Source of the DNA: a virus
Taxonomy: Duplodnaviria; Caudoviricetes
Length of the DNA stretch: 64,000 nucleotides
Direction: 5' to 3' (one strand)
IMG/VR virus record: IMGVR_UViG_3300036971_000130
The first letter of the stretch is position 1. Every line of letters begins with the position of its first letter. The notes below the pieces were generated by a model. It ran no database searches. It was given only the letters and a program-made list of their open reading frames with translations, and was not told where the DNA came from. This document shows, piece by piece, positions 1,727 through 59,189 of the stretch. Both the position numbers and the translations under genes were made by a program.

Positions 1727-1746
1727 GGTTCCATCATGGGTGGTGG

Positions 1747-9994: not shown

Positions 9995-10354
9995 TCAGGA
10001 GCAGGAGGACCAGCGAGGATCTACCTGGTAGTAGCAGACCTTCGAGTGCTTCGACTCACCGACGAACTTCCCCTCGACTCGAACGATGCCGGTCTTGGAG
10101 TAGTCGATCTTGGTCACCACCCGCAGCTTCCTCAGCGACCCCTTGTAGGTGCAGAGGAAGACATCGGTGGCCGTGGACCCCTGACGTTCGGCGCTGGTGC
10201 TCTTGCACGAAGCCTTCCCGCTCGCCCCGGCCGGACGGAGGATGGTCGAGATGTCCTGGACCATCGGCTTGATCTTGGCGTCGTGGTCAGCCGGGACACA
10301 GGCTGACAGCACGAGGATGAACGCCACGACAGGGAGGATCAGGAGCTTCTTCAT
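9995..10354 (-). CDS. Basic secreted lipoprotein (MKKLL family)
   Basis: Lipobox LSAC, four further Cys; TAGAAT-N6-ATG. Confidence 0.8.
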   Translation of the reverse strand: MKKLLILPVVAFILVLSACVPADHDAKIKPMVQDISTILRPAGASGKASCKSTSAERQGSTATDVFLCTYKGSLRKLRVVTKIDYSKTGIVRVEGKFVGESKHSKVCYYQVDPRWSSCS

Positions 10355-10387
10355 GTAGTGATTCTACCACCCACGGCGAGGCCAGGG

Positions 10388-10780
10388 TCAGACCCGGAAG
10401 CAGAAGTACGGCGACCCGCTGATCTTGCCGTCATTCAGACGGACCTTGCAGTGCAGGTTGTTCTTCGGGGCCGACGAGGTCGCCACGTCGATGAACTCGC
10501 CTTCGCCCTTCCACTCACCGTAGAAGGCGTGCGTGACCACCTTAAAGGTGCCGGTGGCCTTCGGCACGGTGCAGGACCACTCGTTGCTCACCGACGGACG
10601 GCCGTTGCTGGCCTTGCTGTCCCACTGCCGGATGCTCTTACAGGTCGGCTGCTGGCCTCCACGGGACTGCCGGAGGATCAACTCGGCGGATTCCTTGGTC
10701 ACCGAGTTGTGGTACGACGGGATGCAGGCGGACAGCACGAGGGCGAATGCCACGACGGGAAGAACCAGGAGCTTCTTCAT
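10388..10780 (-). CDS. Basic secreted lipoprotein (MKKLL family)
   Basis: Lipobox LSAC, four further Cys; TAGACT-N6-ATG. Confidence 0.8.
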   Translation of the reverse strand: MKKLLVLPVVAFALVLSACIPSYHNSVTKESAELILRQSRGGQQPTCKSIRQWDSKASNGRPSVSNEWSCTVPKATGTFKVVTHAFYGEWKGEGEFIDVATSSAPKNNLHCKVRLNDGKISGSPYFCFRV

Positions 10781-13272
10781 GGACTGAGTCTACCATCTGG
10801 ACCCCAGCCCTGAGCTTTCCGGAACCGGGCGAGCGCCGCCCTGGTCGCTTCCGGGCCACGTTCACGAAGTCCATCCTCGAACGAGGCGAGCCTCAACATC
10901 GTAGTCGGTGGCCGTTGACCGTCGACGGTCGTCCTGATCGCAGCGGTGTACCGCTCCATGCCTGCGATGTCAGCCGAGGACCATTCCTCGCCGTTGAGCG
11001 CCAGGTCGGCAACGATGTCTGCGATGACCCGGTGGTTGTTCTGGGAGAAGGCCAGCAACGTGCCGAAGCCCATGACGGTGACACGGAGAGCGTCCGGCAA
11101 CTGCTCCGGGTACTGGGTGGCGAAGAACGGCTTGACCCCGAAGGACCGACCCTGGTTGCGGAGCCAGGACAGAACCTCCGACGAGTTGCCAGCGAGGTAG
11201 GTCAACTCGTCGGAGAAGATGGAGACCGAACGACCCTGGTTCTGCCATCCGGGGCACGTCTGCTCGATGGCGGTCTTCAGCCCGAACATCAGGAGCGACG
11301 AGAGAGCCTTCACCGACTCGGTGTCCATGATCTCACCCGATGACGAGTTCGAGGTGTTGATGATCACAGCACCGTGGTTGTCGAGCACCTGCTTCCAGGT
11401 GATCTTCTTGCGGTCAGGAGACCAGAACGGCTCCAACGCCATGAGCGCCTTGATCTTGTTGCGGGCGGCTTCGGTCTGGGTGCGTCGGACGGACTCGGAC
11501 ACCGGCTTGGCGTTGCCGAACCCGAAGATCGGGTTCAACTCCTTCACGACCTCACCGAGTTCGGTGAACGCCTTGTCGGCGTCGACCTTCGATCCGTCGG
11601 TCAGTTCCCGCTGGTGCGCCTTCTTGGCTTCGGCCTCTGCTTTGTCGGCGGCAACCGCCAGAGCGGTAGCGAGCCTCACAGCCTCAGCGTCGCCCTTGGA
11701 GCCGAGAAGGATCGAGGCGTACCCGAACGGGGAGAGGTTCGTGGGGACACCGGCCTCCGTGGCGATCTCCGGTGTCACGCTGAGAGCGGCCGGGAGGACC
11801 ATCTCGAAGGTCTCCGAGGAACGGCCCTTGATCTCACCCTCGTCGAAGGTGTACTTCAGCGCCGACAGCATCCAGCGAGCCTTCTTCGCCGCCGACCCTT
11901 CGACTCCGGCGAACAGGTCGATGGCGTAGGTATTCGGGTCGAGAGCATCGACGACGACCACACGATCACCGAACCCCTCGGACCACGCCTTGTACGCCTC
12001 GGCACCTGACCACTCCTTGCCCTCGAAGGCGATCAGAGCGTTGTGGGAACCAGGGGCACCGGGGATGCCGGAAGGCTCGATGCGGTCGAGAACCATCCAA
12101 GCCCACAGAGCGTGGATGAACCAGGACTTGCCGGAACCGGGAGCGCCGAAAGCGGAGATCCCGGCGAACAGATCACGGGCGGAGATGTGCACCGGGGTGT
12201 CGTCCGGACCACCGAAGCCGATGACCGGGCCGATCCTCGTGACGAGTTCCTTCGGGATGGCCCTGATCTCGTTCACGTTCGAGCCAGTCGCAGCGCCAGC
12301 GTGCGGAGCCACCAGGCCGATCGGGACCGTCGGACCAACGAGGAACGACGAGGTTGCGAGAGGGTACGAACCGGGGTCGCCTTCGGCCGCTCGGGTGCCA
12401 GCGATCTGCGCTGCCTTCGGGGACTTCGGCTTCTTCGGCGGGAACCGGCGGCTCAGCGACTTCGGGAGACGGCCGGTGGCGAGCGTCGACAGGGTCTTCG
12501 ACGACTGCGTCGGGATTACCCCGGTGGAGATGCCGACTGCGTAACCTGCGGGAACAGCCCCGGCTGCGTTCGCAAGCAGGAGGTCGCCTTTCGTCAGGTA
12601 GGCAGTGCCACCGAAAGCAGTTAGTCCGAGAACGGCGGGTAGGACGACGGCCTTCGCCGGAGCGGCGATCTTGACTCCGGTGGTGACATCGAAGCCGGGG
12701 AGCATGGCCGACACCTGCGACAGCATCGACTTCACTTCGTCCTTGCTGTGGCCTCCGGCGAACACCGAGATGACGACAGTTCCATCACTGAAGGCGTGGT
12801 GCGTCGGAAGTGCGGTGCCGAGACGGTGCTTGTACCAGCGGTGTGAACGGCGGATCTCAGCCCGCTTCGGCTGACGGATCGAGATTCCGACCCAGGACCC
12901 AGCCTGCATCATGCGGGCGAGACCACGGGACACCTCGGCGGGATCGGTTCCGGCCTGGGTGTCACGGGTGGCTGCACCCGGCTTCGCCACCAACCATCCG
13001 ACGTACGGGGCGTCGAGGTCAGGGAGACCGTCCGCCTGATCCGCTCGTGCGGCAAGCGAAGTGGCGAGGTTGATGGCTGCGTTCGACGCCTGCTGAGAAG
13101 CCGGTGCAACGAACCAGTCGGTGATCGCCTCACGGTCACGGGTCACGATGAGACTCACCGGACCGGTCTGATCGAGCGTGGAAGTGAACTGACGTGCCCG
13201 AGTCGACAAGGCTTGGAGGTTGATAGAAGCTCCCGCTGCACGAGACAGCTTCCAGGCGTTCAGTTGTTCCAT
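10777..13272 (-). CDS. VirD4/TraD-like type IV coupling ATPase
   Basis: TM hairpin, Walker A GAPGSGKS, Walker B IFSDEL, RNQGRSFGV, ATQYPEQL. Confidence 0.8.
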   Translation of the reverse strand: MEQLNAWKLSRAAGASINLQALSTRARQFTSTLDQTGPVSLIVTRDREAITDWFVAPASQQASNAAINLATSLAARADQADGLPDLDAPYVGWLVAKPGAATRDTQAGTDPAEVSRGLARMMQAGSWVGISIRQPKRAEIRRSHRWYKHRLGTALPTHHAFSDGTVVISVFAGGHSKDEVKSMLSQVSAMLPGFDVTTGVKIAAPAKAVVLPAVLGLTAFGGTAYLTKGDLLLANAAGAVPAGYAVGISTGVIPTQSSKTLSTLATGRLPKSLSRRFPPKKPKSPKAAQIAGTRAAEGDPGSYPLATSSFLVGPTVPIGLVAPHAGAATGSNVNEIRAIPKELVTRIGPVIGFGGPDDTPVHISARDLFAGISAFGAPGSGKSWFIHALWAWMVLDRIEPSGIPGAPGSHNALIAFEGKEWSGAEAYKAWSEGFGDRVVVVDALDPNTYAIDLFAGVEGSAAKKARWMLSALKYTFDEGEIKGRSSETFEMVLPAALSVTPEIATEAGVPTNLSPFGYASILLGSKGDAEAVRLATALAVAADKAEAEAKKAHQRELTDGSKVDADKAFTELGEVVKELNPIFGFGNAKPVSESVRRTQTEAARNKIKALMALEPFWSPDRKKITWKQVLDNHGAVIINTSNSSSGEIMDTESVKALSSLLMFGLKTAIEQTCPGWQNQGRSVSIFSDELTYLAGNSSEVLSWLRNQGRSFGVKPFFATQYPEQLPDALRVTVMGFGTLLAFSQNNHRVIADIVADLALNGEEWSSADIAGMERYTAAIRTTVDGQRPPTTMLRLASFEDGLRERGPEATRAALARFRKAQGWGPDGRLSP

Positions 13273-15789: not shown

Positions 15790-17860
15790 CTACCACACGG
15801 TGACGGTGGTGATCCCGAGGTCCGACTTGATCGGGTGGAAGATGGCCGACTCACCGTCGTGGAACCACGGGGTTCCGTCCGGCTTGCTGGCGAACCCGAG
15901 CGCCCGATCGAAGGACCTGAACACACCGAGACGGAGACCGTCATGGGTGACGATGTGGACCTGGTCGTCGGCGTCGGAGATGTCCGAGACCGGCTCGACG
16001 GTGACGAACATGTTGCTGCCGATGAACTCGTAGGCGGAGACCTCGACGAGCCCGGTCGGGCGATCGGACGAGATGTCCGCCCACGTCACCTTGGTCGAGA
16101 CGGGGAAGTGAGCTAGGCCCGTTCTCGGACCGAACATCTGGATGTGGCGGCTGAAGGGGTGATCGAACGGGATGACGTACATGACCCCATCATGGGTGGT
16201 CAGATGTTGACCGTCACAACCACGTCGCCGCAGCGAGCTTCCCGGCCGTCCCAGGAGAACAGGCGGTTCGAGAACTGACGGAGGCATCCGACGAACGTGT
16301 CCGCTCGACCGATGTTCTTGTCGCCCCACCGGACCTCGAAGGTCGCCTCGACCGGGAACGTGTTGGGCCACGGCTCGATGAGCGCCTTGATCGTGTTGTT
16401 CTCCGTGGAATGGACGACAGCGGTCGTTCCGAGAGTCGGATGGATCACCCGGTCACAGACCTTCACGGTCGGATTCATCGACAGCGGAACGTTGACCGCA
16501 TCACCGACGTGCCCTGCACTCATCGGGCGAATCTCGACATCCCGTTCCGGGGAGAGCGATACCAGCACGTAGCCGGTCAGCAGCCACACATCATCCGGCC
16601 GGGAAGCGAGCGCATCGTCGAGACGAGTGTGCTCGGACTCGACACCATCACGAGAGCGAACCTGGAACCGGACACCAGGAGTGTCGAAGGTCGATCGGAC
16701 AGCGACGCCACGAACCTTGACGGTCCCATCGTCGAGGACATCGGCGGAGACGACCTTGACCATGTTGGGTGTACCAGGGATCGCCAAGGTTGCCCCGGTG
16801 AACCACTCGTCCTGGAACTGGATGGCGAGTTCGCCTTCGAGGCTGAACGTGAAGTCGGAGATCACAGGTCAGTCCTTGATGGTCGTGATGTAGAGCCAGC
16901 GGATCGGGTTGGAGTTCCAGTTGTCGAAGTCGTAGCCGGTGCAGAAGCCACCGTCCCGAGGGAACCAGGCGACATCGGGGTACGCCGAGATCACGTCCTC
17001 GATCTTCCGGTAGGAGACCGGCTCCACCTCGGAGAAGGTCGGGAAGTGGCAGAGAGCGACGTAGACGATGTTGTCGCCGGAGTCGATCTTGGTCCCGTTC
17101 GGCTCGACGGTGAAGGTGATCTCGTCCTTGGTCGTCACGACCTTCGTCACGGTGGCGAGTTCACCGGAGGCCAGGAGGATGCTTCCCCCTTCGTTGACGC
17201 CGTTCAAGTTCTGCTTCTTGGGGTAGGTGAGTTCCATGCACCCATCATGGGTGGTCACCGGAGTGGTGCCCCGACGATGAACGGAATCGAGCCAGGATCA
17301 TGGATGTCGACCCCGTGACCTTCGGTCCGGTCCTCGTGGATGACGACCTTGACGAACGGAAGCGAGCCACCTCGTGCCGCTGACTCGAACGTCTCGTGGA
17401 CGGACCAGCAGTGACGCTCATCGAAGACACCCCAGACGGCGTCCGGCGTGAGTTCGACCTCGACATCGGTGACCGTGAAGGTCCACTGGTGCGTGCGGCC
17501 TTCGACGACGAGGTCCATGTCGGTGACCTTGATCGTGTGCTCACCGTCATGGGAGACGAACGAGTTGATGCCGTAACGCCAGATCGTGTCCACCATCCCG
17601 GCGACATGAGCGATCGAACGGGACATCGAGTAGAAGTCGTTGTCCAGCATGAACTGGACGTTCCCGCCGAAGACCAGCGGGTGATCCTCCGTGGTGACCG
17701 TGATGTACGGCTCGCCGTCCGAGTGATGACGTTCCGAACTCAGGAGCCGTACGCCAGCAAAGGTCTTCGGGTGGAGGATGACCGCCCTGTCCCGCACCCA
17801 CGAATGGACCGCCGCAGCGGGAGAACCGGGGATGGGTCTGGTGACGGGAAGACTGAACAT
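15790..17860 (-). CDS. Four hypothetical genes (15790..16182, 16200..16865, 16869..17237, 17255..17860)
   Basis: Three start 5-6 nt after the motif (16188, 17243, 17867). Confidence 0.65.
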
Positions 17861-25124: not shown

Positions 25125-28100
25125 CGGTCCTGTCCTCCGAACATGGTCTCCATCGTCTCCCGAGGGTTGATGTCGGCCTCGTAGAACAGCGTTCCACCGG
25201 CGAGGAACGCTTCGAGCATCCCTCCGCCGAGCGACCACGACATGTACTCCCGGTCCGCAGCAGCCCGCTCCTTCTCCCGTTCACGCAGGACAGCGATCTC
25301 ATCCGTCAGAGCGTTGATCTTCCTGTGTGCCTTGGCGAGTTCACGAAGCAGGTCTTCCTCCCGAGGATTGAACTCGTCGTCCCACGGATCGTCACACCAG
25401 CCGTAGAAGCTCACCCGAACACCGTCCGAACGAAGTCCTCGCCTTCGGCGGTCAGGGTCGGATTCCCGTAGATCCCGTCCTTGCACTCGATCCGGCGACC
25501 GTCTTCGGAGCCGGGGACGACGAGCCCGTCGCTGTCGAAGACGAGAACGGCGATGATGTCCTGAGCCGAGATGCGGCGCTCTCTTGCGATGTCGATGATC
25601 GTCTTCATGGCACCATCATGGGTGGCCCGGTGGCGATCACCGTCTCCGGTTGAGCGAACAGGATGAAGTCCTCGACCTTCGATGCGTCGTCGACGATCAC
25701 CGTCTTAACCGAGAAGTCGGACATGGTGACGAGACCGATGGACGCAGACCGGAGATCCATGACCTCCACGTCGGCTGCGACGAAGTACCCACGAGTCACC
25801 GTGGCACCCGACAGGTCGATCGTGTCGAGGTTGCGTCCTTCGGTTCGGAAGTCGCCGGTCCCATGGAACTCGACGAAGTCTTCGAGGATCTGAAGCTTCG
25901 TCGGCGTAGCACCGAAGTTGCCCCACCATCGCTGCTTCGGTCGAACCGGGAAACACATGGCGTCGAACGCCTCGTGGTTGTAGTCGGTGCCGGAGACCAC
26001 GTACCGTTCGGCGGTGATACCGAACGCCCGGATCTTGCCGATCTGCTTGCGGTCCAGGAGCACCCGTCGTGCGGTCACCCGGAAGAACTGGGCAAAGAGC
26101 ACCTTCGCTCCACGGATGTCGAGCGTGTCAGCGTGCACGTCAAAGATGTAGCCGGACCGGTAGGTGCCGCTCAACTTCACGTTCTGGCCGTAGAGGTGCG
26201 AGGTCACCGAACGGCTGTTCTTCGAGATGAGGTGGATGTTCTCGCCACCGATCGGGAGGATGTCGAAGGTCATCAGAACGGAAGCGGGGAGAGGGTGATG
26301 GTGCGGTCGGCGTAGAACGGGTGGTCGGCTCCGGGCATGCGGAGGGTAGCTGCTCCCTCGAACTCGCACGCTGCGGCCCACTGCGGATCGCAGAGGCCGA
26401 TCTTGCCCGCCCACCAGACGAACATGTGGGCTTGGACTCGGTCCTTCGGCTCCTTCGACAGCATGTGGTGGTGACCTTCGGTCTTCGACGGCAGGAGGTC
26501 GAATTCGTACTCCATGAAGACGAGTGACCCAGGTCCGGTGAGGCGGATGTTGACGTGCATGTAGGCGGCGAACAGCGCCACCTCACGGTCGGTCAGCGTG
26601 GCGTCGAGGCCGGTGACCTTGATCTCGCCGTAGAATTCGTCGAGTTCGACCGCCACATCGTCCATGTCCAGCATCAGGAACGCATGCGGCGAACGCTGGA
26701 TGCTGTCGATGGTGTAGTCCTTGCCAGGGGTGTAGGCGATCGACGAGAGGACGTTCGGGACGCCCGTGAACATGCCCTCGTCGAGTTCGAACTCGGTGTA
26801 GTCGTCGCTCGGCGTTTCCATCTCGGAGCGCAGCGGTCGGTTCAGCGGAAGGGGGCGCAGGATGTCGTGCATGGTCACATCATGGGTGGTCGACGATGTC
26901 GGCCTCGCAGGAGAGCGTGAGCCAGGTGGCGAACCCGGTGTAGACGATACACCACACTTTCATCAGCAGGTCACCGTCCCAGGTGAAAGTGACGAGGATG
27001 GTCAGGATCTCCATGACGGAGAGGTTGATCATCGCCACCCCATACGCGACCCTCTCCCCGAAGTAGACCACGATCGTGCGGAAGACGATCCCGACACCGT
27101 AGGTGACCATCAGGAGGCTGAATGCGATCGCCTCACCGGACACGAGTTGGTAGGACCCAATCCCGACGAGGGTGGCACCGATGAGTTCCAGGAGGACCAT
27201 CATGGTCTTCGTCATCCGGACCTCATCGGGAAGTTCGGTCGACATCAACCGAACACCGCAGCGATGCGAGCCTGCTCGACGAGGCGGGTGTACGCCTCGG
27301 CGGAGAGGACCACGCCGATCCCGTGGTCGCTGCGACCAACGGTGACGGTACCGACGTGGATGCCGAGGTCGACGAGAGCGTCGGTGCTGTCGTCGATCGC
27401 CTTCTTGCAGGCGTCGACGTTGCGGGCACGACGGGCACGGGATTCCTCGTACTCAGCCTGACGCTGCTCGGCTTCGGCCTTCTCCTTGGCCTTGGAGTCC
27501 TTGGCGGCGACATGGATCTCGGTGATCGTGTCGAGGTTCATCTCGACGCCGACCTCGTGGTGACGGGGACGCTCGACGCTGACCCCGACGGCGATCATCT
27601 TCACGTCGTCGCCGTAGCTGTCGGTGGGAACGGCGAAGACCTGGCCGGGCTTCGAGAGGGGAAGCTGGGCGTGGCGGTGGGTATCCGACAGGCTTCTGAC
27701 GAAGTCCCTCATCTCCGAGCCGGAGACACCGAGGGCGGTCTGGGCGGCGACCTTCGTCGGGGTGGCGACGTAGAGCCGGACCTGGGAGATGTGCGATCGG
27801 CAGCCGAGGGCCTTGGCGATCTGGTAGTTGCAGACGATGACGGTGTGAACGGTGTTGGTCATGTCGTCAACATGGGTGGCACATCCGGGTGTGTCCAACC
27901 ATCAGCAGATGAAGCCACGTCGCTTCAGGAACTCGATCATCTCGGGATCGAGAGGAACGTCTCCGACCGGGACAGCAACCAACGAACGGTAGAACTCGTA
28001 CATCTCGTCAACCGTCTCCGTCACATGGTCGAGGACGGCAAGGCCAGCAGCGAGGACTGCGTAACCCACACGGTTCGCCGTGATCGGATCTGACCGCTTC

Positions 28101-37466: not shown

Positions 37467-38102
37467 ATGCTGACCATCGAGGTCCGCCCCGGCGAGGGAG
37501 GCGAAGACGCAGAGGCGTTCGCTTCCGAACTCGTCACAACCATCACGTCCATCGTCCGCCGTCTCGGCGGTGACAGCACCACCGAGACTGATGCCGCACG
37601 CACCACCACCATCTCCGTTCGAGATGAACTCGAACTCGACTGGCTCGCAGGTGTCCACCGCATCCAGCGCATCCCGAAGAACGACCGCCGAGGCCGACGC
37701 CACACGTCGACCGCCACCGTGAACGTCCTCGGGGAAGTCCACGTTGCCGAAGTCGACCTGACCTCGGTGCGCTACGAGATGTTTTCCGGTTCGGGACCAG
37801 GAGGCCAGCACCGGAACAAGTCCCAGAACTGCGTGCGAGCCATCCACCCGTCCGGTGTCACCGCAACATCGACCGAGCACCGCTCCCAGTTCCAGAACCA
37901 GAAGGCAGCGACCGCAGAACTCGTCAGACGGCTACAGGAGCAGTCAGAGTCCGATGCCGCTGACGCCGTGAACAGTCAGCGCAACATCGCTGCTGGACGA
38001 GAAGCGAAGACCTGGACATGGAACACCCAGAGGTCTGAGGTGGTCGCCCATCACCTCGGACGAAAGTGGCCGCTCGGGCGGTTCTCGAAGGGTCAGGTCT
38101 GA
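37467..38102 (+). CDS. Class I peptide chain release factor homologue lacking domain 1 (PrfH-like architecture)
   Basis: EVRPGEGGEDA, GVHRIQRIP...GRRHTSTATV, GSGPGGQHRNK, RSQFQN. Confidence 0.9.
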   Translation: MLTIEVRPGEGGEDAEAFASELVTTITSIVRRLGGDSTTETDAARTTTISVRDELELDWLAGVHRIQRIPKNDRRGRRHTSTATVNVLGEVHVAEVDLTSVRYEMFSGSGPGGQHRNKSQNCVRAIHPSGVTATSTEHRSQFQNQKAATAELVRRLQEQSESDAADAVNSQRNIAAGREAKTWTWNTQRSEVVAHHLGRKWPLGRFSKGQV

Positions 38103-47290: not shown

Positions 47291-48544
47291 TCACGAGAAC
47301 ACGGCCAGGTAGGTCAGCTTGATCCGGTCGAGGTTCCACTGGATCATCTCGTTGTTCATCACACCGCAGGTCCCGCCCTTGACGTTGATCGAGTCGTACT
47401 TCGCTCGCTCCCTTTCCGAGTGGGCGAGCATCCGATCCCGAGGCCGCATCTCCCGTCCCATCGCCACATCGGCAACGAACATCGAGACCTCGTTGGAGCC
47501 TCGGCCACCGCCGCCCCAGTACCCGTCGGAGTAGTTGAGCGACTTCGTCGACTGGTCCGAGAAGTACACCCCGTCACCGAACATGCGTCCAGCGATGTGG
47601 ATACCGTCGCTGTTCGTCGGGACGATGAGGCCACGGTGCATCAGCGAGATCAGGTTGCCGGTTCCCGTTCCATGCCAGAGGCGCTTGACGTTGCCGACTC
47701 GGTCCGATTCGACCTTGATCCGAGCGGCCAGCGCAGCGTCAGCTTCGGTGATCTCGTAGAGGGCAACGAGCTTCCGCCCGGAACTGGTGTGGATCGAGTT
47801 CACTGTCGAGGTGAACATCTCCTGGATCGACCGGAACTCCGGAGACGACGGGTCGACAGTCGTCAGCGAGTAGCGGAAGATCCGCTTCTTCGGCTCATCG
47901 TCGTTCGCTGCTGCTGCGGCGGCGATCGCAACAGCGCCGTCGAGAGCGTCCAGGAACTCGACCTGCTTCGCCAGGAAGGTCTGCTCGACGAAGTTCTTCT
48001 CCCACCCTCGGGTCCTCCCGATGTCCTGCGGGACGATGGTCATGTAGCGGCCGATGTCGGCGTTCGTCGGGGCCTTCGCCTTGCTGATCTTGTCCAGCAG
48101 CGCCCTCGCTTCGAGGATGGAAGCGGCACCGACAGGACCGAGTGCGGTCTCCACCGAGCCGCTCTTGGCGACGGTGATCTTGCCGCCGGAAGCGTCCTCG
48201 ATCATGTGTCGGTTGGCGTCACACCAAGAGTTGATCCGACGGATCAGATCGGCGTTCTGGGTCGTCGGAAGTTGCGTCACGGCGTAGTCCGAGAGGACAG
48301 AGTTCGAGGTGATCTTGGAGCCGGAGGAACCGTCTCCGGTCGAATCGAAGACCTGGTACCCCTTCTTCTTCTTCGAGGCGATCGCACGCTCGTAACCGGA
48401 GCGTCCGGTGCCCTCCGAAGACGACTGTCCGTTGGCTCCGACACGCCCCCATCGCTTCTTCACGATGTTGCCGTCGAGGGTCACTTCGTAGAACTTGTTG
48501 TTGTTGGAGTTCGGGTCCGAGAGGACCAGCATGGTGGTTTCCAT
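47291..48544 (-). CDS. WGR-domain poly(ADP-ribose) polymerase-like protein
   Basis: NNKFY...WGRVG...KKKKGY; LWHGT, GRMFGDGVYFSD..KSLNY, NNEMI (H-Y-E triad). Confidence 0.9.
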   Translation of the reverse strand: METTMLVLSDPNSNNNKFYEVTLDGNIVKKRWGRVGANGQSSSEGTGRSGYERAIASKKKKGYQVFDSTGDGSSGSKITSNSVLSDYAVTQLPTTQNADLIRRINSWCDANRHMIEDASGGKITVAKSGSVETALGPVGAASILEARALLDKISKAKAPTNADIGRYMTIVPQDIGRTRGWEKNFVEQTFLAKQVEFLDALDGAVAIAAAAAANDDEPKKRIFRYSLTTVDPSSPEFRSIQEMFTSTVNSIHTSSGRKLVALYEITEADAALAARIKVESDRVGNVKRLWHGTGTGNLISLMHRGLIVPTNSDGIHIAGRMFGDGVYFSDQSTKSLNYSDGYWGGGGRGSNEVSMFVADVAMGREMRPRDRMLAHSERERAKYDSINVKGGTCGVMNNEMIQWNLDRIKLTYLAVFS

Positions 48545-48560
48545 ACCCACCATTATGGGT

Positions 48561-48608
48561 GTGACCACTGACAGTTTCGGGCGGTCACCCAAAGCCGTCA
48601 GTGGTCAC
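48561..48608. promoter_or_regulatory. Inverted repeat immediately upstream of the PARP promoter motif
   Basis: GTGACCACTGAC...GTCAGTGGTCAC. Confidence 0.55.
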
Positions 48609-48663: not shown

Positions 48664-48927
48664 TCAGCGGCGGATGCGAAGGCTCGGATCGTTGACCCCG
48701 ATCGCACGCACGACGTTGAACCGGTTCCGCTTCTGACGGAGCACGGCGGAGGTGAAGTCGAGGTCGTCGCCGGGGCGAACTCGGACGGTCATCTTGCCGC
48801 CGAGAGGACCCGACTCGGTGGTGATCTGACCACCCTTCAGGGTGATCTTGTAGACCCGCTTGAAGTCCCCGCCTCGGCGGTTGTCGGGGCCGTGCATCGT
48901 GATGGTTTTGGTGGTGCTGATGGGCAT
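48664..48927 (-). CDS. Possible degenerate stand-alone WGR-like domain
   Basis: KRVYKITLKGGQITTESGPLGG...LRQKRNRF. Confidence 0.4.
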   Translation of the reverse strand: MPISTTKTITMHGPDNRRGGDFKRVYKITLKGGQITTESGPLGGKMTVRVRPGDDLDFTSAVLRQKRNRFNVVRAIGVNDPSLRIRR

Positions 48928-49002
48928 GTAGAGAACATGGGTGCGGTTTTCGCCGTGTCCAACCAGGACCAAAAACATGCGTTTACCTGGGGATATGCCT
49001 TT

Positions 49003-49640
49003 CATGTCATTTCATGTCATTTCTTGCACAGAGGTTTCGGACGTCCCTGGAGATTTTGTTTTTGCCGTTGATCCTGGCCCCTCTCAGTCAGTTTCGTGAA
49101 CTTTCAGTCCTTCTCCTGCCACGACGTGACCTTCTGATCTCGTGACGTTTCATGTCATTTCATTGCCAGAGGTTTCGGATGTCCTGGGAAAACGTCGAAG
49201 TAGCCTTGATCTCGGCCCCGCTCAGTACATCTCGTGTCATTTCATGCTTTGGCCCGATGGGGACGTTCGGCAATATGGGTGGGACACAACCGCCTTCAGC
49301 CTGTGGATAACTGCCTTCAGCCTGTGGATAAGTCCGTTTTGGGGCCTCAGATGGGGCTCGAAACGCCCTGTTGGAGCCCGGTTTTCTGGGTTCTGGCCGG
49401 AGACGGCCGAAAACCGAGGCCAAGCCGCTGACCTGCGAAAACACTAGAGACATAGAAAGGTAGAAGGAGGGGGTAGTAGTAGTAGATGACTGTTGTTTCC
49501 ATACATATGTCTAATAATTACCCCCCCCCTCTCTCTCTGTATACCCCTACCGTTTTCAACTCAGACTGGTTCCCGACGACCGGACTCTCCGACTTCCGAG
49601 ACAGCACGGTTCCGTAACTGCCGCCAATAGTTATCCACAG
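49003..49640. other. Origin-like island: ~80-bp direct repeats, three DnaA boxes, AT-rich element copy 2
   Basis: Repeats ~49013-49090 and ~49151-49229; TGTGGATAA at 49302 and 49323, TTATCCACA at 49631; AT-rich 49441-49550 with (TAG)4. Confidence 0.65.
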
Positions 49641-49663: not shown

Positions 49664-50152
49664 ATGAAGACCCGGACTAGGATCGTCGCACTCGCCATGG
49701 CACTCTCGGCACTCGTCGGAGTCACCGCAACCGGCTGCGACGAAGACACCTCGAACGGCAGCGGAGTTCCGACAACGGTCGCTGCTTCGACCGCCAAGGA
49801 ACAGACTCGCAAGCTCGTGAACGACGAGCGACGAGACCACGGACTGCGTGCTCTCCCAGCCCGAGCGGACGCCGAACGCAAGGCGCAGAGTTGGGCGAAC
49901 GAACTCGCTCGACGAGGCACGATGTCTCACTCGAACGTGACCTCCGGTATCACCGACTTCTGCTACGTCGCAGAGAACGTCGGCTATGCGGTCGACCCGG
50001 ATTCGCTGCACGACTTCTGGATGAACTCTGCACCGCACAAGGCGAACATCCTCGACCGCCGATGGACCCACATGGGTGTTGGAACTGCGACCGGAACCGT
50101 GCAAGGCTGGAAGGTGAACTTCACCGTCACGGTGTTCGTCCAGGACTGCTGA
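49664..50152 (+). CDS. CAP/SCP-domain lipoprotein
   Basis: LVNDERRDHGL...MSHS...ENVG...WMNSAPHKANIL...MGVG. Confidence 0.9.
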   Translation: MKTRTRIVALAMALSALVGVTATGCDEDTSNGSGVPTTVAASTAKEQTRKLVNDERRDHGLRALPARADAERKAQSWANELARRGTMSHSNVTSGITDFCYVAENVGYAVDPDSLHDFWMNSAPHKANILDRRWTHMGVGTATGTVQGWKVNFTVTVFVQDC

Positions 50153-50842: not shown

Positions 50843-51001
50843 CGGCCCCGCTGCTGCACGGCGATGACGGGGTTCTCCTGTCCGCCGTGCAGCGGGGGAC
50901 GATCGTCACCGTCGAAGGGCGCTGGCGTGAATCCGCTCGCCGTCTCGCTGATGCGGGGCTCGTCGAGTGGGACGGGACATCGAACCCTCCGAAGGTTCCA
51001 G

Positions 51002-51487
51002 GTGACTTCGCTCGCTGAGGTCACCGGACCGAAGCTGCTCGTGACCGGTTCGAGGGCCTTCGCCGGTGAGCACCGTCAGGGGCGTGATCTGCTGCTCACC
51101 CGAGACGGCGTCGTCGCTGACGAGTTGCTCTCGATGATCTTCGACGGGCATCCCCAGATGACCCTGGTCCACGATGGCTGTCCGAAGGGCGCTGATGCGT
51201 GGGCGAAGGACTGGGCGTACGAGACCGGCAACGAACAGGTCGCTGTCCCTGCGAAGTGGCAGCGGCCTGACGGTTCCACCGATCGTGGTGCCGGGTTCAA
51301 GCGGAACGCCGAGATGGTGTCGAGCTTGCAGCCCGGCGACTTCGTGGTTGCGATGTGGGACTGGACCTCGAACGGCACGAACCACTGCGTGGGCGAAGCG
51401 GTGAAGCGAGACCAGAAGCTCGTCGCTGCCGGAGGTCCGGACAACGCTCTGCGGATCTTGTACATCCGGGGTGTGCCCCACCCATGA
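51002..51487 (+). CDS. SLOG-family (YspA/DUF2493-like) protein
   Basis: LLVTGSR...LVHDGCPKGAD...AGFKRNAEMV...SNGT. Confidence 0.8.
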   Translation: MTSLAEVTGPKLLVTGSRAFAGEHRQGRDLLLTRDGVVADELLSMIFDGHPQMTLVHDGCPKGADAWAKDWAYETGNEQVAVPAKWQRPDGSTDRGAGFKRNAEMVSSLQPGDFVVAMWDWTSNGTNHCVGEAVKRDQKLVAAGGPDNALRILYIRGVPHP

Positions 51488-51494
51488 TCTCGTC

Positions 51495-52013
51495 ATGCGC
51501 CGGAACCTGATCTACCTCGACATCGACGGTGTCCTGAACCCGGACGGCCAGAAGATCCTCCGCCACTGGCCGGACGCCCGGAAGTTCGACTCTCGGGTCG
51601 CAGCAACCGGGCCTGATCGAATCCTGCATCCGGCGTCGAAGATCAAGAGCTTCCGGCTGTGGCGCTCCCCGGCGCTGGTGGGTGCGCTGCTCGGCCTCGA
51701 CGCCGAGATCGTGTGGGCGACGACCTGGACGGAGTACCTCGACACGGTGATCGCCCCGAACTACGGCTTCCCGCTCGGCCTCGACCGGGTGGACTTCCAC
51801 GGTCCGACTCCGGCGGTCGGGTCCGGGAAGCTCCCGCTGGTCTCCGAGCATCTCGGTGCAGCGGGTGACGTTCGGGCGGTCTGGATCGACGACCTGCTGT
51901 CGAAGGACGAGTCCGAGTGGGCTGACGCCAACGGCGTCCTGGCGATCGCTACCACACCCTCGATCGGTCTCATCCAGGCTCACATCGAGTCGATCCGGGA
52001 ATGGCTCTCGTAG
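51495..52013 (+). CDS. HAD-superfamily (Swiss-army-knife type) phosphatase
   Basis: LDIDGVLN, VWATTW, K, WIDD. Confidence 0.85.
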   Translation: MRRNLIYLDIDGVLNPDGQKILRHWPDARKFDSRVAATGPDRILHPASKIKSFRLWRSPALVGALLGLDAEIVWATTWTEYLDTVIAPNYGFPLGLDRVDFHGPTPAVGSGKLPLVSEHLGAAGDVRAVWIDDLLSKDESEWADANGVLAIATTPSIGLIQAHIESIREWLS

Positions 52014-52185
52014 GTTTCGGCCCAGAACAGCCTGATTCTGCCCGATTTTGCCGTTTCCGGGCCTCTGAGCGCCCCGGATGGTCTCTGGGTCATCCGCTAC
52101 CCTCAGAGGCTTAGAGCGGCTCTATGCACGATCGTGCATAGTTATGCTTGACAGGAGGGCTACAATCGGGCGTCAACCAGGAGGT

Positions 52186-52540
52186 CGTAGATGTCGATGG
52201 TTGCCGTAACACAAGCCGTACAGGAGACGGGGACGACCAAGAGCGGTCGATTCTCGACGAGTTGGTGGATGCTCGAAACCGAGTGCCGCCACATCGTTCG
52301 ACGGCCCGTGAAGTTCATCCCCGGAGCGTCCGGCGGACGACGAGGGTGGGCACTGCTGCATCACCCGCCTGCCTCCGATGACAGCCTGCCACCTCCAACG
52401 AAGGTGAAGTGCCCCATGTGCAACGGGGACGGTTGACCGACAATCGTCTGCAAGCCGAACACCACCGACGCCTCGGACTGAAGTTGGACATGGGCGAACA
52501 CACCACCCATGATGAGTACATGGAACTTCTCAGCACCACC
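52186..52540 (+). repeat. 355-bp direct repeat, copy 1 (81-aa Zn-ribbon gene 52191..52436 plus promoter)
   Basis: Matches 53221-53575; the only mismatch I found is 52512 A / 53547 T. Confidence 0.95.
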
Positions 52541-52552
52541 CATGATGGCCCC

Positions 52553-53104
52553 ATGATCCACACCGCTGTCCTCTCCGGGGTCGACAAGGCAACGCACACG
52601 CCAGTCGAGCACTTCGTCGTCTGGCTGAACGCCCGAGCGACCTGTCCCGGCTGCGACCAGTCCGACCGACCTGTGGTCCGAGACATCCCGGTGATGGTCG
52701 ACGACCGAGGCGACATCCAGGCAGTCAGCCAGCAGCACGGATGTGGTTCTTGGTGGGGGCCGGACTGGGACTCGATCAAGCTCGGGTCCGATGATGACGA
52801 CGACCGCAAGGCCGTCATCACCCACGCTCTCGTGAGGCAGGCGGAAGAAAACCGATCGGCGGATCGCCAGGTGGTCAAGGAATCCCTCGAAAGCGACATC
52901 AGGTGGGTCCTGTCGCTCGTCAACGACACGCACGATCCCGACATCGAAGACCTTGACGATCTCCGTTTGGAGATGTCCACGGGCAACGAGGCCAACCCCG
53001 GCGTGTACTTCGACGACGACAAGATCGTCGCCTGGACCTACGACCCGTGGTCCGAGGATATGACGGAGCCGGAACTCATCACGGTCACCGAGACAGTCCG
53101 ATGA
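52553..53104 (+). CDS. Hypothetical Zn-finger protein (in-frame alternative start at 52520)
   Basis: CPGC...HGCG; two motifs in tandem upstream. Confidence 0.65.
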   Translation: MIHTAVLSGVDKATHTPVEHFVVWLNARATCPGCDQSDRPVVRDIPVMVDDRGDIQAVSQQHGCGSWWGPDWDSIKLGSDDDDDRKAVITHALVRQAEENRSADRQVVKESLESDIRWVLSLVNDTHDPDIEDLDDLRLEMSTGNEANPGVYFDDDKIVAWTYDPWSEDMTEPELITVTETVR

Positions 53105-53244
53105 GGAAGGTCATCCACGTCCACCAGCACAAGATCAAGAGGGGCGAACCGGCGATCATCGTCCGGACCTACAAGGGGTCCAGGCACTACACGAGGGTCG
53201 AGATCAACGGGCCGTCGGTGCGTAGATGTCGATGGTTGCCGTAA
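53101..53244 (+). pseudogene. Truncated phage protein (IHVxQH...RTYK...INGPS)
   Basis: Cut by repeat copy 2 at 53221. Confidence 0.6.
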
Positions 53245-53575
53245 CACAAGCCGTACAGGAGACGGGGACGACCAAGAGCGGTCGATTCTCGACGAGTTGG
53301 TGGATGCTCGAAACCGAGTGCCGCCACATCGTTCGACGGCCCGTGAAGTTCATCCCCGGAGCGTCCGGCGGACGACGAGGGTGGGCACTGCTGCATCACC
53401 CGCCTGCCTCCGATGACAGCCTGCCACCTCCAACGAAGGTGAAGTGCCCCATGTGCAACGGGGACGGTTGACCGACAATCGTCTGCAAGCCGAACACCAC
53501 CGACGCCTCGGACTGAAGTTGGACATGGGCGAACACACCACCCATGTTGAGTACATGGAACTTCTCAGCACCACC
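53221..53575 (+). repeat. 355-bp direct repeat, copy 2
   Basis: See copy 1; offset 1035 bp. Confidence 0.95.
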
Positions 53576-53896
53576 AACGCCAAGACCGGGAACTTCGTCC
53601 GCCAACTCCTGGTGACCGACACCGTGATCTACGAGATCGTCGCCGTCTCCCCGAGCGGCAAGACCGTGACCCTCCGGACCACCAAGCAGGCCGTCGAGAA
53701 CGGCAAGCCGGTCGTCCGGTCCGAGACCAACCCGAACGGATCGCCGTACCCGATGTCCTACATCATGCAGGAGGCCGACCCGCTCGGACGGGTCTTCACC
53801 AGCCGGGTGAACAGCCTCGGTCAGTTCGGCCCCTTCCAGGGCAAGCCGCTCTACAACATCGAGGTCCCCGAGCGTCGGGTCGACATGTCCTTCTGA
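53555..53896 (+). CDS. Hypothetical protein
   Basis: TGGACA-N17-CATGTT-N6-ATG. Confidence 0.75.
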   Translation: MELLSTTNAKTGNFVRQLLVTDTVIYEIVAVSPSGKTVTLRTTKQAVENGKPVVRSETNPNGSPYPMSYIMQEADPLGRVFTSRVNSLGQFGPFQGKPLYNIEVPERRVDMSF

Positions 53897-54144
53897 GCCT
53901 CCGCCTGAGCCGGAAGGCTCCCGAGGCCCTTCGAGACTTTGACCCGGTTCCCCGCCATGAGGGTGAACCGGGTCAGAGTTTTTGTCGTGAACCCCTCTCC
54001 TTCACAGACCTCGGCGGAAGCGCCGACAGCGCCGTGCTTGATGATCGCCTTCTTGGCTTCGGACTTCGCCAGCGTCAGCGCATCGAAGGTCTCCGACGCT
54101 GCGACGGTAAGTCCCTTGTCGACGATGATGAACCGGTAGGACAT
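53851..54144 (-). CDS. Hypothetical protein
   Basis: TAGCCT-N6-ATG. Confidence 0.55.
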   Translation of the reverse strand: MSYRFIIVDKGLTVAASETFDALTLAKSEAKKAIIKHGAVGASAEVCEGEGFTTKTLTRFTLMAGNRVKVSKGLGSLPAQAEAQKDMSTRRSGTSML

Positions 54145-54220
54145 CCGGCGAGGCTATCCAAAGGCGTCCGTTTCGTCTAGGTTGGTCCGATCCACCCTGA
54201 ACCAAGAGTAGGGTTCCGCC

Positions 54221-54979
54221 ATGCCACCACGGAAGCGTGCGGCCTCGAAGACGGCCAAGAAGACCCCAGCGAAGAAGGCTCCCCCGAAGCCGAAGCTCGA
54301 CCTGAACTCGGTCGTGCCCAAGGGCGTCCGGACCGATGAGCAGAAGGCGTACTGGTCGACGAGAACCAAGTCGGGCACCTCGGGGATCGTGGAAGTCCAC
54401 ACCGGCGACGTGACTCAGGCGATCGTGGACTTCATCCTGGCGTCCCCGTCGATCGTCGGAGCCGTGGCGTGGCTGACCTCGGGGCCGATGCTCGAAGCGA
54501 TGTCGCTCGTCGGGGATGTGACCATCCTCGTGCAGAAGGAAGCGGACCTTCAGGGCAAGACCGCCCAGTCGAGAGCCCAGTTGGCGAAGTACCGTGCGAT
54601 CGGCAACGGAGTCCTGAAGAACGCTCTCCCGGAGCCGATCAGCCAAGCCCGATGCGGGCCTCGCCTCGGCCCCGTCCGTTCCGTCGGTGCCATCCACGGC
54701 CGGTCGTCGAGGCACACACCTCGGATGCACAACAAGTTCTTGGTCCGAGGTCACTACCGTGGTCGCACCTGGGTTCCTGAAGCTGTCCTCACCGGTTCAT
54801 CGAACGGCTCGATCAACGCCGGGTACTCGTTGGAGAACATCCTGATCGTCCATGACCCGGATGTCGCCGCCTTCTACCTCGACTACTTCGCTCGGATGGC
54901 AGCGATCTCCGAACCGATGAACTCGGTGCATCGCACCGTGCAGCCAGAGTGGGTTCAGCAGCCCCCGGCGAAGAAGTGA
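54221..54979 (+). CDS. Phospholipase D-family (single HxK) nuclease-like protein
   Basis: AVAWLT, MHNKFLV, TGSSN...ENI. Confidence 0.85.
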   Translation: MPPRKRAASKTAKKTPAKKAPPKPKLDLNSVVPKGVRTDEQKAYWSTRTKSGTSGIVEVHTGDVTQAIVDFILASPSIVGAVAWLTSGPMLEAMSLVGDVTILVQKEADLQGKTAQSRAQLAKYRAIGNGVLKNALPEPISQARCGPRLGPVRSVGAIHGRSSRHTPRMHNKFLVRGHYRGRTWVPEAVLTGSSNGSINAGYSLENILIVHDPDVAAFYLDYFARMAAISEPMNSVHRTVQPEWVQQPPAKK

Positions 54980-56132
54980 TGGGGCTCAACCTAGGTACGC
55001 TCTGGCCTGGGTCCGTGCTGTCGTTCCTGATCGGGTACGGGCTCTTTCGTTGGCGGCTCCGCAAGAAGGACCCGGTCGGAGCAGCCAGATGTCTGGTTGT
55101 CGGTTTCGGGGTCTCCGCTCTCCTGTTCATGGCCCCGATCGCTCACGCACGGCTGGATTGCTACTCGTGCTGACCCCGACCCATGATGACGGCATGAACA
55201 GACTCGCCTACCTCATCGGTACCGCTGTCGCCGCCGTCGTGGTCGGAACAGCGAACCGGCTGCTGGGTCTCCGTGGAGGTTCCCGATGACATCGGCCATC
55301 CTGATCCTTCTGGTGCTCGCCGCTCTCGCTGCGCTCACGATCATCGTCGTCTACGGTGACGCTGGGTCGGTCCGCTCCTACGTCAAGGACGCTTGGTTGC
55401 GGGTCAACGTCAAGATGTCGTCAAGGATCGACTCGGCCCTGGAACGGGAGGAAGACCGTTGATCTACACGTCCAAGTTCTTCGATCGACCGGGGCTCGAA
55501 CCTGTCGAGTACCGGATCATCTCAGACGAGGAAGCGATGCCCGAGCTTCTTCGTCGGGCGCAGGCGTCCGCAGCCAATGACGACGCCGACGGCGTGGTCC
55601 TGAACCGGGTGCTCGCTGTCGGTCCCTTCCGGCTGATGTCCCGCAAGGAGGTCTCGGCTCCCACGAGTCGCTGGCCGCAACTCGTGGCCGAGAACTTCGG
55701 TCCGACCACCACGATCGGACTCAACTTCCGTTCGACGCTCCACACGACCACAGCCTGGAAGGCAACATGAAGTTCGTTCTGAACATCCCCGGATGGGACC
55801 CGACCGAGACCAATGTCGAGGTCATCAACCCGCCTGCCGACCTCGACGAGAACGAAGACCTCCTGGTCGAGATCACGGAGTCGATGGTCAGAAGCCTTCC
55901 TTGGAAGCCCGCTCCCGGCGAAGCGTGGAGCGTCTTCCTTCGGAACCGATCGGTCTTCGGGGTGAAGATCGGACTGTCCACTCAGCGTGGCTCCTGGCTT
56001 TTGAGGGTTCGCTTCCCGAAGGTCAGCTTCCGACTGCGTGCGAACGGGCTGTTCGTCAGCTTTCGTCACGGGACCGACTACCGTGCTGCGGTCCTCATCT
56101 GGCGCTGACCGACGCCACCCATGATGTTCAAC

Positions 56133-58437: not shown

Positions 58438-59189
58438 ATGACCAAGACCTTCACCAAGCGTGTCCGCTCGTTCGCAGACACCCTCACCGAAACGATCGGA
58501 CGCATCCAGTTCGTCGAGCAGGATGCCGACGCCACTGGCCCGATGATCGTCGAGTTCAACTCGTACATCCACGACGAGATGGCCGGAGGAAGGATCAAGT
58601 CGCTGACCATCAGCGACACCGAGACCCCCGGCTCCATCAAGGGGTCGCCCTGGAAGGCGAAGCGGGTCCGTAACATCTGGTTCGTGACCTTCACCTTCCG
58701 GGTCGAGGAAAGCGACTACGACATCACAGCGGTCGACGTGACGATCGAGTCGAAGACGACCCCCTCCCTCGAAGATGTCATGTACCTCTCGTGGACGACC
58801 GACCGACTGGACAACCGATGAGCAAGACCTTTACCACGAACATCGAATCGACCGTCTACACCTTCGACGACGAGGTCGGCCCCGTCCAGTTCCTCATCCA
58901 AGGGCCGGACGATCACGAGTCCATGATGGTCGATTGCGACTCGTACATCCACGGGGATGTAGTCGATGGGGACTCGATCAAGACGTTGACCATCAGCGAC
59001 ACCGAGACCCCCGGTTCCATGAGGGGCAAGCCCCGGAAGGCCAACGAGATCGGTGGACGGTGGTACGTCACCTACGTCTTCCAGGTCGACGGAGCGGACT
59101 TCGCCCTGACCTATGTCGGTGTGCAAGTCCCCGTCGACGGGACCCCCGATCTCAACGAGGGCATGTACCTCTCGTGGAGGACCGCATGA
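58438..59189 (+). CDS. Tandem paralogs (58438..58821, 58818..59189)
   Basis: Shared SYIH...IKxLTISDTETPGS..G.P.KA...MYLSW. Confidence 0.8.

Follow-up and report, generated by a model that had tools for sequence, protein, structure and literature searches.

A gene inserted between two copies of a 355-nt repeat in a plasmid-like element, with one joint inside a promoter-like word

IMG/VR virus record IMGVR_UViG_3300036971_000130 (Duplodnaviria; Caudoviricetes) was analysed as one stretch of 64,000 nucleotides, here called the window, which probably belongs to a large plasmid-like element. Its positions 52186 to 53575 raise the question of how a gene, X, came to lie between two almost identical copies of one segment, A, with one of its joints inside a short promoter-like word that recurs throughout the window, and whether this word took part in the joining. 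An earlier note on the same DNA had read the locus as a recent snapshot of gene capture with the word as the crossover point. The A-X-A arrangement, the word at the start of X and the end of X in the middle of a gene have all held up; the role of the word as a crossover point and the recent date have not. The reading that we prefer, with a probability of about 0.6, is that the insert is real and integrated and that it was made by non-specific illegitimate joints, the promoter word being passive.

Repeat and insert

The repeat occupies positions 52186..52540 (copy A1) and 53221..53575 (copy A2), both on the plus strand and offset by 1035 nt. In an ungapped comparison 354 of the 355 positions are identical and the edges are sharp, the left break falling at 52185 (T versus G) and the right one at 52541 (C versus A); blastn of the two copies gives 99.718% identity across 355 nt. 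Both comparisons agree with the earlier description of a 355-bp direct repeat with one mismatch in a -10 box. The lone difference is A at 52512 versus T at 53547, that is, CATGAT in A1 and CATGTT in A2. A repeat of this length and identity (99.7%) cannot be of chance origin. A repeat search returned the initial 300 nt at 100% with the same spacing of 1035 nt as the sole long near-identical repeat of the 64-kb window; the remaining direct repeats are either short or older pairs of paralogues at 72-78% identity.

The order along the window is upstream flank (U), A1, X, A2 and gene D. The insert X (52541..53220, plus strand) is 680 nt long and lies between the two A copies, which confirms the A-X-A arrangement proposed earlier. 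Copy 2 does run into the gene beginning MELLSTT-NAKTG, ATGGAACTTCTCAGCACCACC being followed there by AACGCCAAGACC. A plain tandem duplication gives A-X-A-X. Products of unequal crossing-over resemble the present locus in having direct repeats at a fixed distance and in their instability under homologous recombination, but here it is D that follows the second copy. A plain head-to-tail duplication of a whole unit was rejected, as only 355 of the 1035 nt recur and X and D are unrelated (E = 14); the latter result also excludes an old, diverged tandem duplication.

The GC content of X is 62.5%, and both GC and GC at third codon positions (GC3) match the surroundings. Gene X (52553..53104, plus strand, 183 amino acids) is an ORFan assigned to no family. 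No relatives of X were found in IMG/VR, no tblastn match in plasmids, and no second copy in the window, IMG/VR, the plasmid collection or 5.8 billion proteins. Nor did X match any Pfam or PHROG family, and there is no inverted repeat at its ends. A transposon or insertion sequence with a target-site duplication was rejected on these grounds: X contains no transposase-like family and lacks terminal inverted repeats, and 355 nt is too long, target-site duplications being typically far shorter. An integron cassette was rejected too, since no integrase or recombinase family was seen among the 75 open reading frames (ORFs) scanned and no Rfam family matched in 51000-55000 (0 matches). Because its GC and GC3 are those of the surroundings and it carries a perfect copy of the word, the donor of X was probably an element of the same kind.

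The two joints

The recurrent word, CCACCCATGATGGnnnCATG (CCACCCATGATGGNNNCATG), has 27 matches at up to two mismatches in the window, where 100 shuffles predict 0.01. Perfect copies number five, including that of X, CCACCCATGATGGCCCCATG (52536..52555, plus strand, 0 mismatches), which straddles J1, the joint of A1 and X. J1 is marked by the heptamer CACCACC (52534..52540, plus strand; break between 52540 and 52541), which is common to both partners: in D it belongs to codons 5-7 (AGC ACC ACC), and in X it is the upstream half of the promoter word. After CACCACC, copy 1 continues with CATGATGGCCCCATGATCC, which supplies another copy of the word together with the start codon of gene X (ATG at 52553). 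The claim that the 680-bp X starts with the motif joined via CACCACC is thus supported by a full and perfect motif copy at J1. The tandem promoters and the in-frame fusion that had also been claimed are also seen: the two motif copies lie at a distance of 33 nt, and X is extended in frame by 11 codons. The ATGs at 52520 and 52553, themselves 33 nt apart, are in frame within ORF 52409-53104, and from the first of them gene X reads as a fusion MELLSTT-HDGP-MIHT... of 194 amino acids.

Several motif copies in the window have an exact CACCACC 5' of CATGAT. It is plausible that the donor read ...CACCACCCATGATGG, which would give at least 7 nt of microhomology at J1. The sequences that meet at J1 have about 7-10 nt in common, those that meet at J2 none. 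The latter joint, between X and A2 (53220..53221, plus strand), is blunt, has no motif and lies 5 nt 5' of the ATG of the second copy of gene A. It reads GGGCCGTCGGTG followed by CGTAGATG and falls inside a gene of the phrog_8676 family. No microhomology is visible there, either against the U flank or against the continuation predicted from homologues.

The idea that the motif served as the crossover point does not agree with these joints. The motif of D itself (52503-52522) stands intact 33 nt 5' of the X motif, both motifs survive, and there was therefore no in-register exchange between them; the partner at J1 is codons 5-7 of D, and J2 has no motif. Heptamers CACCACC followed by CATGAT or CATGTT number 7 of 34 in the window (both strands) and 4 of 31 outside the locus. 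A jump from the CACCACC of D would meet a motif in about 13-20% of cases (1 in 5-8) without any special mechanism.

One might still suppose, in line with the earlier note, that the word is a regular recombination linker through which ORFan cassettes are shuffled between copies of the element, possibly via small circles, and that A-X-A is one such capture in progress. The word does precede about 28-40 mostly ORFan genes, J1 does lie inside it, and a weak hint, at the protein level only, comes from the variant protein P0012 (see below), whose residues HDDGM match the motif copy at 55177-55196. However, the sequence of D used at J1 is coding sequence 13-21 nt past its ATG and not its motif, the two motifs stand side by side instead of being merged in register, and J2 is not at a motif. 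Further, 13-20% of CACCACC sites are linked to the motif by chance and only a single event is at hand, no relatives with the word were found for comparison in the collections scanned, and no recombinase was seen among the 75 ORFs scanned. We regard such shuffling as quite improbable. The related proposal that the word, as by far the commonest short repeat of the element and one that stands before most of its ORFan genes, doubles as a recombination linker which channels microhomology joints to gene starts, so that foreign genes arrive with a -10 box and a start codon, seems hardly less improbable.

The truncated gene at the right end of the insert

The next ORF (53101..53244, plus strand) begins in an ATGA that also contains the stop codon of gene X. 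Residues 1-40 of this ORF (53101-53220) have homologues; they are followed by seven foreign codons and a stop inside A2. Four database homologues of 65-71 amino acids show 68-83% identity, and the match is confined to residues 1-40. Past ...INGPSV the homologues read MVHSxEPDRCGARVWIETEAEV, where the window reads RRCRWLP and a stop. All four of them, as well as all 80 viral loci kept from IMG/VR, run about 20-25 residues beyond GPSV. In IMG/VR, 464 of 595 pattern-matching stretches encode relatives of the cut gene, and each of the 80 kept loci matches the query out to residues 57-63 of 65. The full-length homologue P0002, which is 82.5% identical to the window's residues 1-40 (E 4e-20), matches phrog_8676, a family of unknown function. 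Full-length members of this family have about 61-71 amino acids and a conserved C-terminal EPDRCGARVWIET block, which the ORF at 53101 lacks; no other place in the window encodes the missing C-terminal part (best tblastn E = 1.7).

Judged by these homologues, the right end of X cuts a predicted gene of about 65 codons, a member of a widespread phage family, after codon 40. The earlier observation that X ends in mid-gene, with the 53101 ORF cut at GPSV, is thus borne out, as homologues extend beyond this point. A source of X with an intact 53101 gene, which the earlier note had suggested looking for, was not found in any of the collections searched. A metagenome scan with the phrog_8676-like family yielded 20 loci at 56-77% identity, each with 0-1 motif matches; X, A, D and the neighbouring genes are absent from these 20 loci and from the 80 viral family loci.

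Recurrence of the joints

Proteins that span the joints occur on other contigs too. The ORF across X and A2 (P0001, 47 amino acids) occurs on three contigs in a collection of 15 billion proteins. The fusion of A and X is present on two, P0011 on the contig of 233,542 nt that carries the window's proteins and P0012 on one of 1150 nt, and the two proteins differ at 4 of 204 residues (98% amino-acid identity). Proteins spanning A and D occur on three contigs: P0008 (V, from GTT), P0009 (D, from GAT) and P0007. The contig with P0009 is 1679 nt long and also carries P0006 and gene A, and that with P0007 is 2345 nt long; a contig of 9984 nt with P0059 likewise belongs to those with junction proteins. 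Since junction-spanning proteins recur on other contigs, the joints are real DNA and not one-off products; moreover, the overlaps at J1 and J2 (7-10 nt and none) are too small for a k-mer assembler to have invented the joints. By these matches all three new adjacencies are reproducible, and at least one of them comes from a slightly diverged lineage.

The earlier view of a recent snapshot fits poorly with the A-X fusion on a second contig at 98% and the X-A ORF on three: the arrangement is either inherited or resampled, and no fleeting intermediate. Collapsed alleles with a single A were sought as well, and no proven one was found. The 1679-nt contig is compatible, by arithmetic on contig sizes and gene calls, with a start inside X and thus with an A-X-A allele having CATGAT in both copies.

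Six spurious ORFs that span junctions (four across U and A, two across X and A) were absent from the protein collection in an exact look-up, and so was a longer form of the X-A ORF (53047-53244). A metagenome scan with an alignment of the A-D and A-X proteins, using patterns of their shared N-terminus, gave 19 pattern matches, none of them confirmed; the contigs with P0009, P0012 and P0007 are thus absent from the collection scanned.

Between the -10 box and the ATG, P0012 reads HDDGM, whereas the window at 52503-52522 reads HDEYM. HDDGM is also what translation of the motif copy at 55177-55196 would give, and the variant may be a trace of a short conversion between motif copies.

Even with real adjacencies, the assembly could have put a mixed population into a single path. 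The true molecules would then be U-A-D together with a second carrier of (A-X)n, which could be a circle, a tandem array or a different strain. Alternatively, X-A units would be present in a number other than one. Indeed, the 355-nt repeat, whose first 326 nt are identical, exceeds typical short reads, so that read pairs decide the path; the contigs at the locus from related samples are short (1150, 1679 and 2345 nt), as if the assembler had broken at the repeat; and a version with CATGAT in A joined to D exists (P0009). On the other hand, X is flanked by A on both sides and has no other neighbours, and the assembled path is the only single-molecule solution that uses each adjacency once. A 1-kb circle without replication genes would not attain the coverage needed for assembly, and the contig of 233,542 nt passes through the locus. 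We consider an artefact of assembly or copy number improbable.

A possible mechanism

Under the reading with non-specific joints and a passive word, the ancestral locus would have been U-A-D: a gene A led by a Shine-Dalgarno box, the leaderless-type promoter word, and gene D. A piece of 680 nt from a sister or related element with the same word would have been joined to it by two non-specific joints. This piece would have consisted of gene X with its own promoter -10 box and ATG, plus 40 codons of the next gene. J1 would have been made via the 7-nt CACCACC that the upstream half of the word of X has in common with codons 5-7 of D. The word would have had a passive role, being the most repeated short sequence of the element and hence the microhomology on offer.

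The route that we tentatively put first is a single-step template switch of the MMBIR/FoSTeS type (microhomology-mediated template switching). Synthesis through U and A into D would have stalled and been re-primed via CACCACC on another copy of the element, or a closely related one, at the promoter of X. The nascent strand would then have copied X and 120 nt of the next gene, and returned 355 nt behind its point of departure.

Within the same broad reading, and again with a passive word, the joints could be the result of two steps involving two alleles, which we think unlikely, and over which the one-step switch is favoured only slightly. An older variant U-A-X followed by the intact gene, with J1 as an old mosaic boundary, would later have been joined to U-A-D by unequal illegitimate crossover or end-joining, with breaks inside the phrog_8676-family gene and just before gene A. 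Variant lineages do exist, namely P0012 (A joined to X, 98%) and P0009 (A with CATGAT joined to D), and the upstream gene is present in several variants at the 90% level on other contigs. Only J2 would be new in the final step, and a blunt J2 is what end-joining is expected to leave. However, the best full-length relative of the cut gene is only 83% identical and no near-identical intact copy was found, the truncated junction ORF is itself on three contigs, and J1 needs a separate, earlier event.

Several points weigh against the reading with non-specific joints as well. In the collections searched no near-identical intact copy of the cut gene was found, the best full-length relative standing at 83%, nor any donor of X, so that the template of X is hypothetical. 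The length of the microhomology at J1 is derived from the motif consensus, and template switching less typically leaves a joint without microhomology such as J2. The linear arrangement of the parts on a single molecule is taken from the assembly, and the transcription starts implied by the promoter layout are predicted from sequence. Finally, the lineage with the A-X fusion differs at 4 of 204 residues, whereas there is a single difference in 355 nt between the two A copies; should the P0012 lineage be A-X-A as well, gene conversion may keep the copies alike, and the event would be older than it appears.

If the insertion is as described, several consequences follow. Gene A would be doubled, its second copy having no ribosome-binding site. 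X would stand behind two promoter copies 33 nt apart, and its product could carry an N-terminal extension of 11 residues. The phrog_8676-family gene would be dead. With the 355-nt repeats on either side, the insert would be easily lost through homologous recombination.

The promoter word

When the spacer to the ATG is fixed at 6 nt, the resulting stricter pattern has 28 sites in the window, and its logo adds a -35-like ggTTGGaC about 17 nt 5' of CATGAT. CATGAT itself occupies positions -12 to -7, counted from the A of the ATG. A promoter for leaderless mRNA would have this geometry; the word resembles a sigma-70-type promoter whose extended -10 box (CCACCCATGATGG) is set for leaderless starts. 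A simple sigma-70 scan picks TGGACA-17-CATGAT at 52485-52513. This belongs to the candidate D promoter retained in copy 1 (52485..52522, plus strand), which consists of TGGACA, 17 nt, CATGAT, 6 nt and the ATG at 52520, its motif having one mismatch. The corresponding motif in copy 2 (53538..53557, plus strand) has two mismatches to the consensus, and its CATGTT is the minority form, seen at 5 of the 28 sites. The word itself often stands directly behind the stop codon of the preceding gene. As expected of a derived fusion, the tandem motif pair 33 nt apart is unique in the window. Among the sites that span 563-63025 of the window, examples with ggTTGGaC about 17 nt upstream are at 1724-1743, 16180-16199 and 25606-25625.

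Elsewhere, the word is matched exactly once among 2.9 million viral contigs (IMG/VR). Its single matches in 596 Gb of genomes are scattered and number 51, where about 70 are expected by chance at equal base frequencies; the 51 are thus at about chance level. No comparison genome carrying the word was found in either collection. The word appears to be private to the lineage of this element. In addition, a blastn search of phage records with 51400-54200 as the query gave no matches.

Upstream flank and genes A and D

The upstream flank U (52061..52141, plus strand) follows a HAD-like gene at 51495-52013 that matches HAD_SAK_2. It contains an inverted repeat (52061-52080 and 52091-52110) and a terminator-like palindrome (52122-52141). 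A Shine-Dalgarno box AGGAGG (52179..52184, plus strand) lies 6 nt 5' of the ATG of the first gene A copy, just outside the repeat.

The repeat begins 5 nt 5' of the ATG of gene A, which has 81 codons. Its first copy (52191..52436, plus strand) encodes a small Cys/His protein of 81 amino acids from an uncatalogued family. The second copy (53226..53471, plus strand) encodes the same protein; it has no AGGAGG, as this box falls outside the repeat, and the truncated gene reads through over its start. Besides the query, phmmer found 42 distant homologues among 1.84 billion representatives, and on this evidence A is a real gene. In an alignment of 15 of them C32, H34, C74 and C77 are conserved, with the pattern WW.LELECGH...LHHPP...PPPKRVRC..C, and the product may be Zn-finger-like. 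Gene A matched no Pfam and no PHROG family. Two distant relatives in viral contigs are present in single copy without flanking repeats, and A as a terminal repeat of a mobile element was rejected for this reason.

The 83 nt 3' of gene A carry CCACCCATGATG, 4 nt and CATG; beyond them lie the codons 1-7 of D (MELLSTT). Gene D (53555..53896, plus strand, 113 amino acids) is an ORFan starting with MELLSTTNAKTG. A homologue search returned only its own cluster, and there are no relatives in IMG/VR. Nothing on the function of A, X or D was found in Pfam, PHROGs, the ESM Atlas or PDB sequences.

Comparison with known systems

In T4-type phages, repeated PeSL promoter-terminator cassettes are described as flanking ORFans (Arbiol et al. 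2010, PMC2839356). Recombination between the promoter cassettes is described as yielding indels, mini-circles and crossovers between the -10 box and the ATG (PMC2839356; Comeau et al. 2014, PMC4122927). The present locus is similar in that a short repeated promoter word stands before many ORFans in a large mobile genome, 63 of the 75 scanned ORFs having no Pfam family, and in that a joint lies near a -10 box. It differs in the joints themselves. PeSL recombination is an exchange between two cassettes, whereas of the four ends here only one is in a motif, and it is joined to coding sequence, codons 5-7 of D; there is no in-register crossover between two cassettes, and the block has no cassette at its J2 end. 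Besides, no stem-loop terminator part is seen here, and the host is an apparent actinobacterial plasmid-like element and not a T4-type phage. We do not assign the locus to the PeSL type; it works like an ordinary microhomology scar.

Microhomology-mediated template switching (MMBIR/FoSTeS) is described for human copy-number variants (Hastings et al. 2009, PMC2621351), and complex insertions are described as well (PMC5120786). The common features are a non-recurrent complex rearrangement, a presumably templated insertion with flanking duplication, and an apparent microhomology at a joint. The recipient duplication at our locus is the repeat of 355 nt with 354 identical positions. The differences are that one joint is blunt and that no template for X was found; the event may also have come from breakage and joining instead of replication.

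Illegitimate recombination gives rise to the mosaic boundaries of phage and plasmid genomes, and for lambdoid phages there is an older idea of linker sequences. As at such boundaries, the incoming gene is attached close to the start of a gene or right at it, and a remnant of a cut gene remains at the other end. However, those boundaries are deduced by comparison of genomes, whereas here the event is visible in a single sequence, since both parental recipient ends are kept as the 355-nt duplication.

The host element

Pfam families were found in 12 of the 75 scanned ORFs (PARP with WGR, RF-1/PCRF, HD_4, the YAcAr SLOG domain, HAD_SAK_2, CAP and others). A protein of 831 amino acids (10777-13272, minus strand) shares about 39% identity with the type IV secretion coupling proteins encoded on plasmids of 150-600 kb from Arthrobacter, Pseudarthrobacter, Curtobacterium, Glaciihabitans and relatives. 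This resemblance supports an affinity to conjugative plasmids over phages, and the element is probably a giant conjugative-plasmid-like element of an uncultured actinobacterium.

Some of the cargo is unusual for a plasmid-like element: a protein with PARP catalytic and WGR domains (47291-48592, minus strand), a short release-factor-like protein of 211 amino acids with PCRF and RF-1 (37467-38102, plus strand), a YAcAr SLOG protein (50864-51487, plus strand) and an HAD_SAK_2 protein (51471-52013, plus strand).

Tandem pairs of paralogues are present at 58438-59189 (72% over 148 nt) and 9995-10780 (78% over 102 nt), which suggests that local duplication may be recurrent on the element. A direct repeat of 50 nt (49002-49051 and 49140-49189, 80% identity) that holds TCATGTCATTTCATGTCATTTC sits between the divergent genes 48664-49005 (minus strand) and 49664-50152 (plus strand, CAP-domain lipoprotein), and could be an operator or regulatory repeat. 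An exact direct repeat of 35 nt (787-821 and 878-912, 91 nt apart) lies inside the ORF 644-1750 (minus strand).

Implications

The locus is a single and mechanistically ordinary event in an unusual, uncultured element. It is useful mainly as a population-variant marker that can be tested by PCR, and as a natural construct with tandem promoters and an N-terminal fusion. It is rare for a scar to retain both parental ends, and such scars show directly how a mobile element gains a gene; here one end of the acquired piece was joined through a microhomology of 7 nt, while the other was cut bluntly inside a neighbouring gene. If the linker reading were true after all, the word would correspond, on a plasmid, to the PeSL cassettes of T4-type phages, and A-X-A would be its first preserved footprint in which both parental ends remain. 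Should more joints be found at the word, they would tie a leaderless-type promoter code to the gene turnover of this family of elements.

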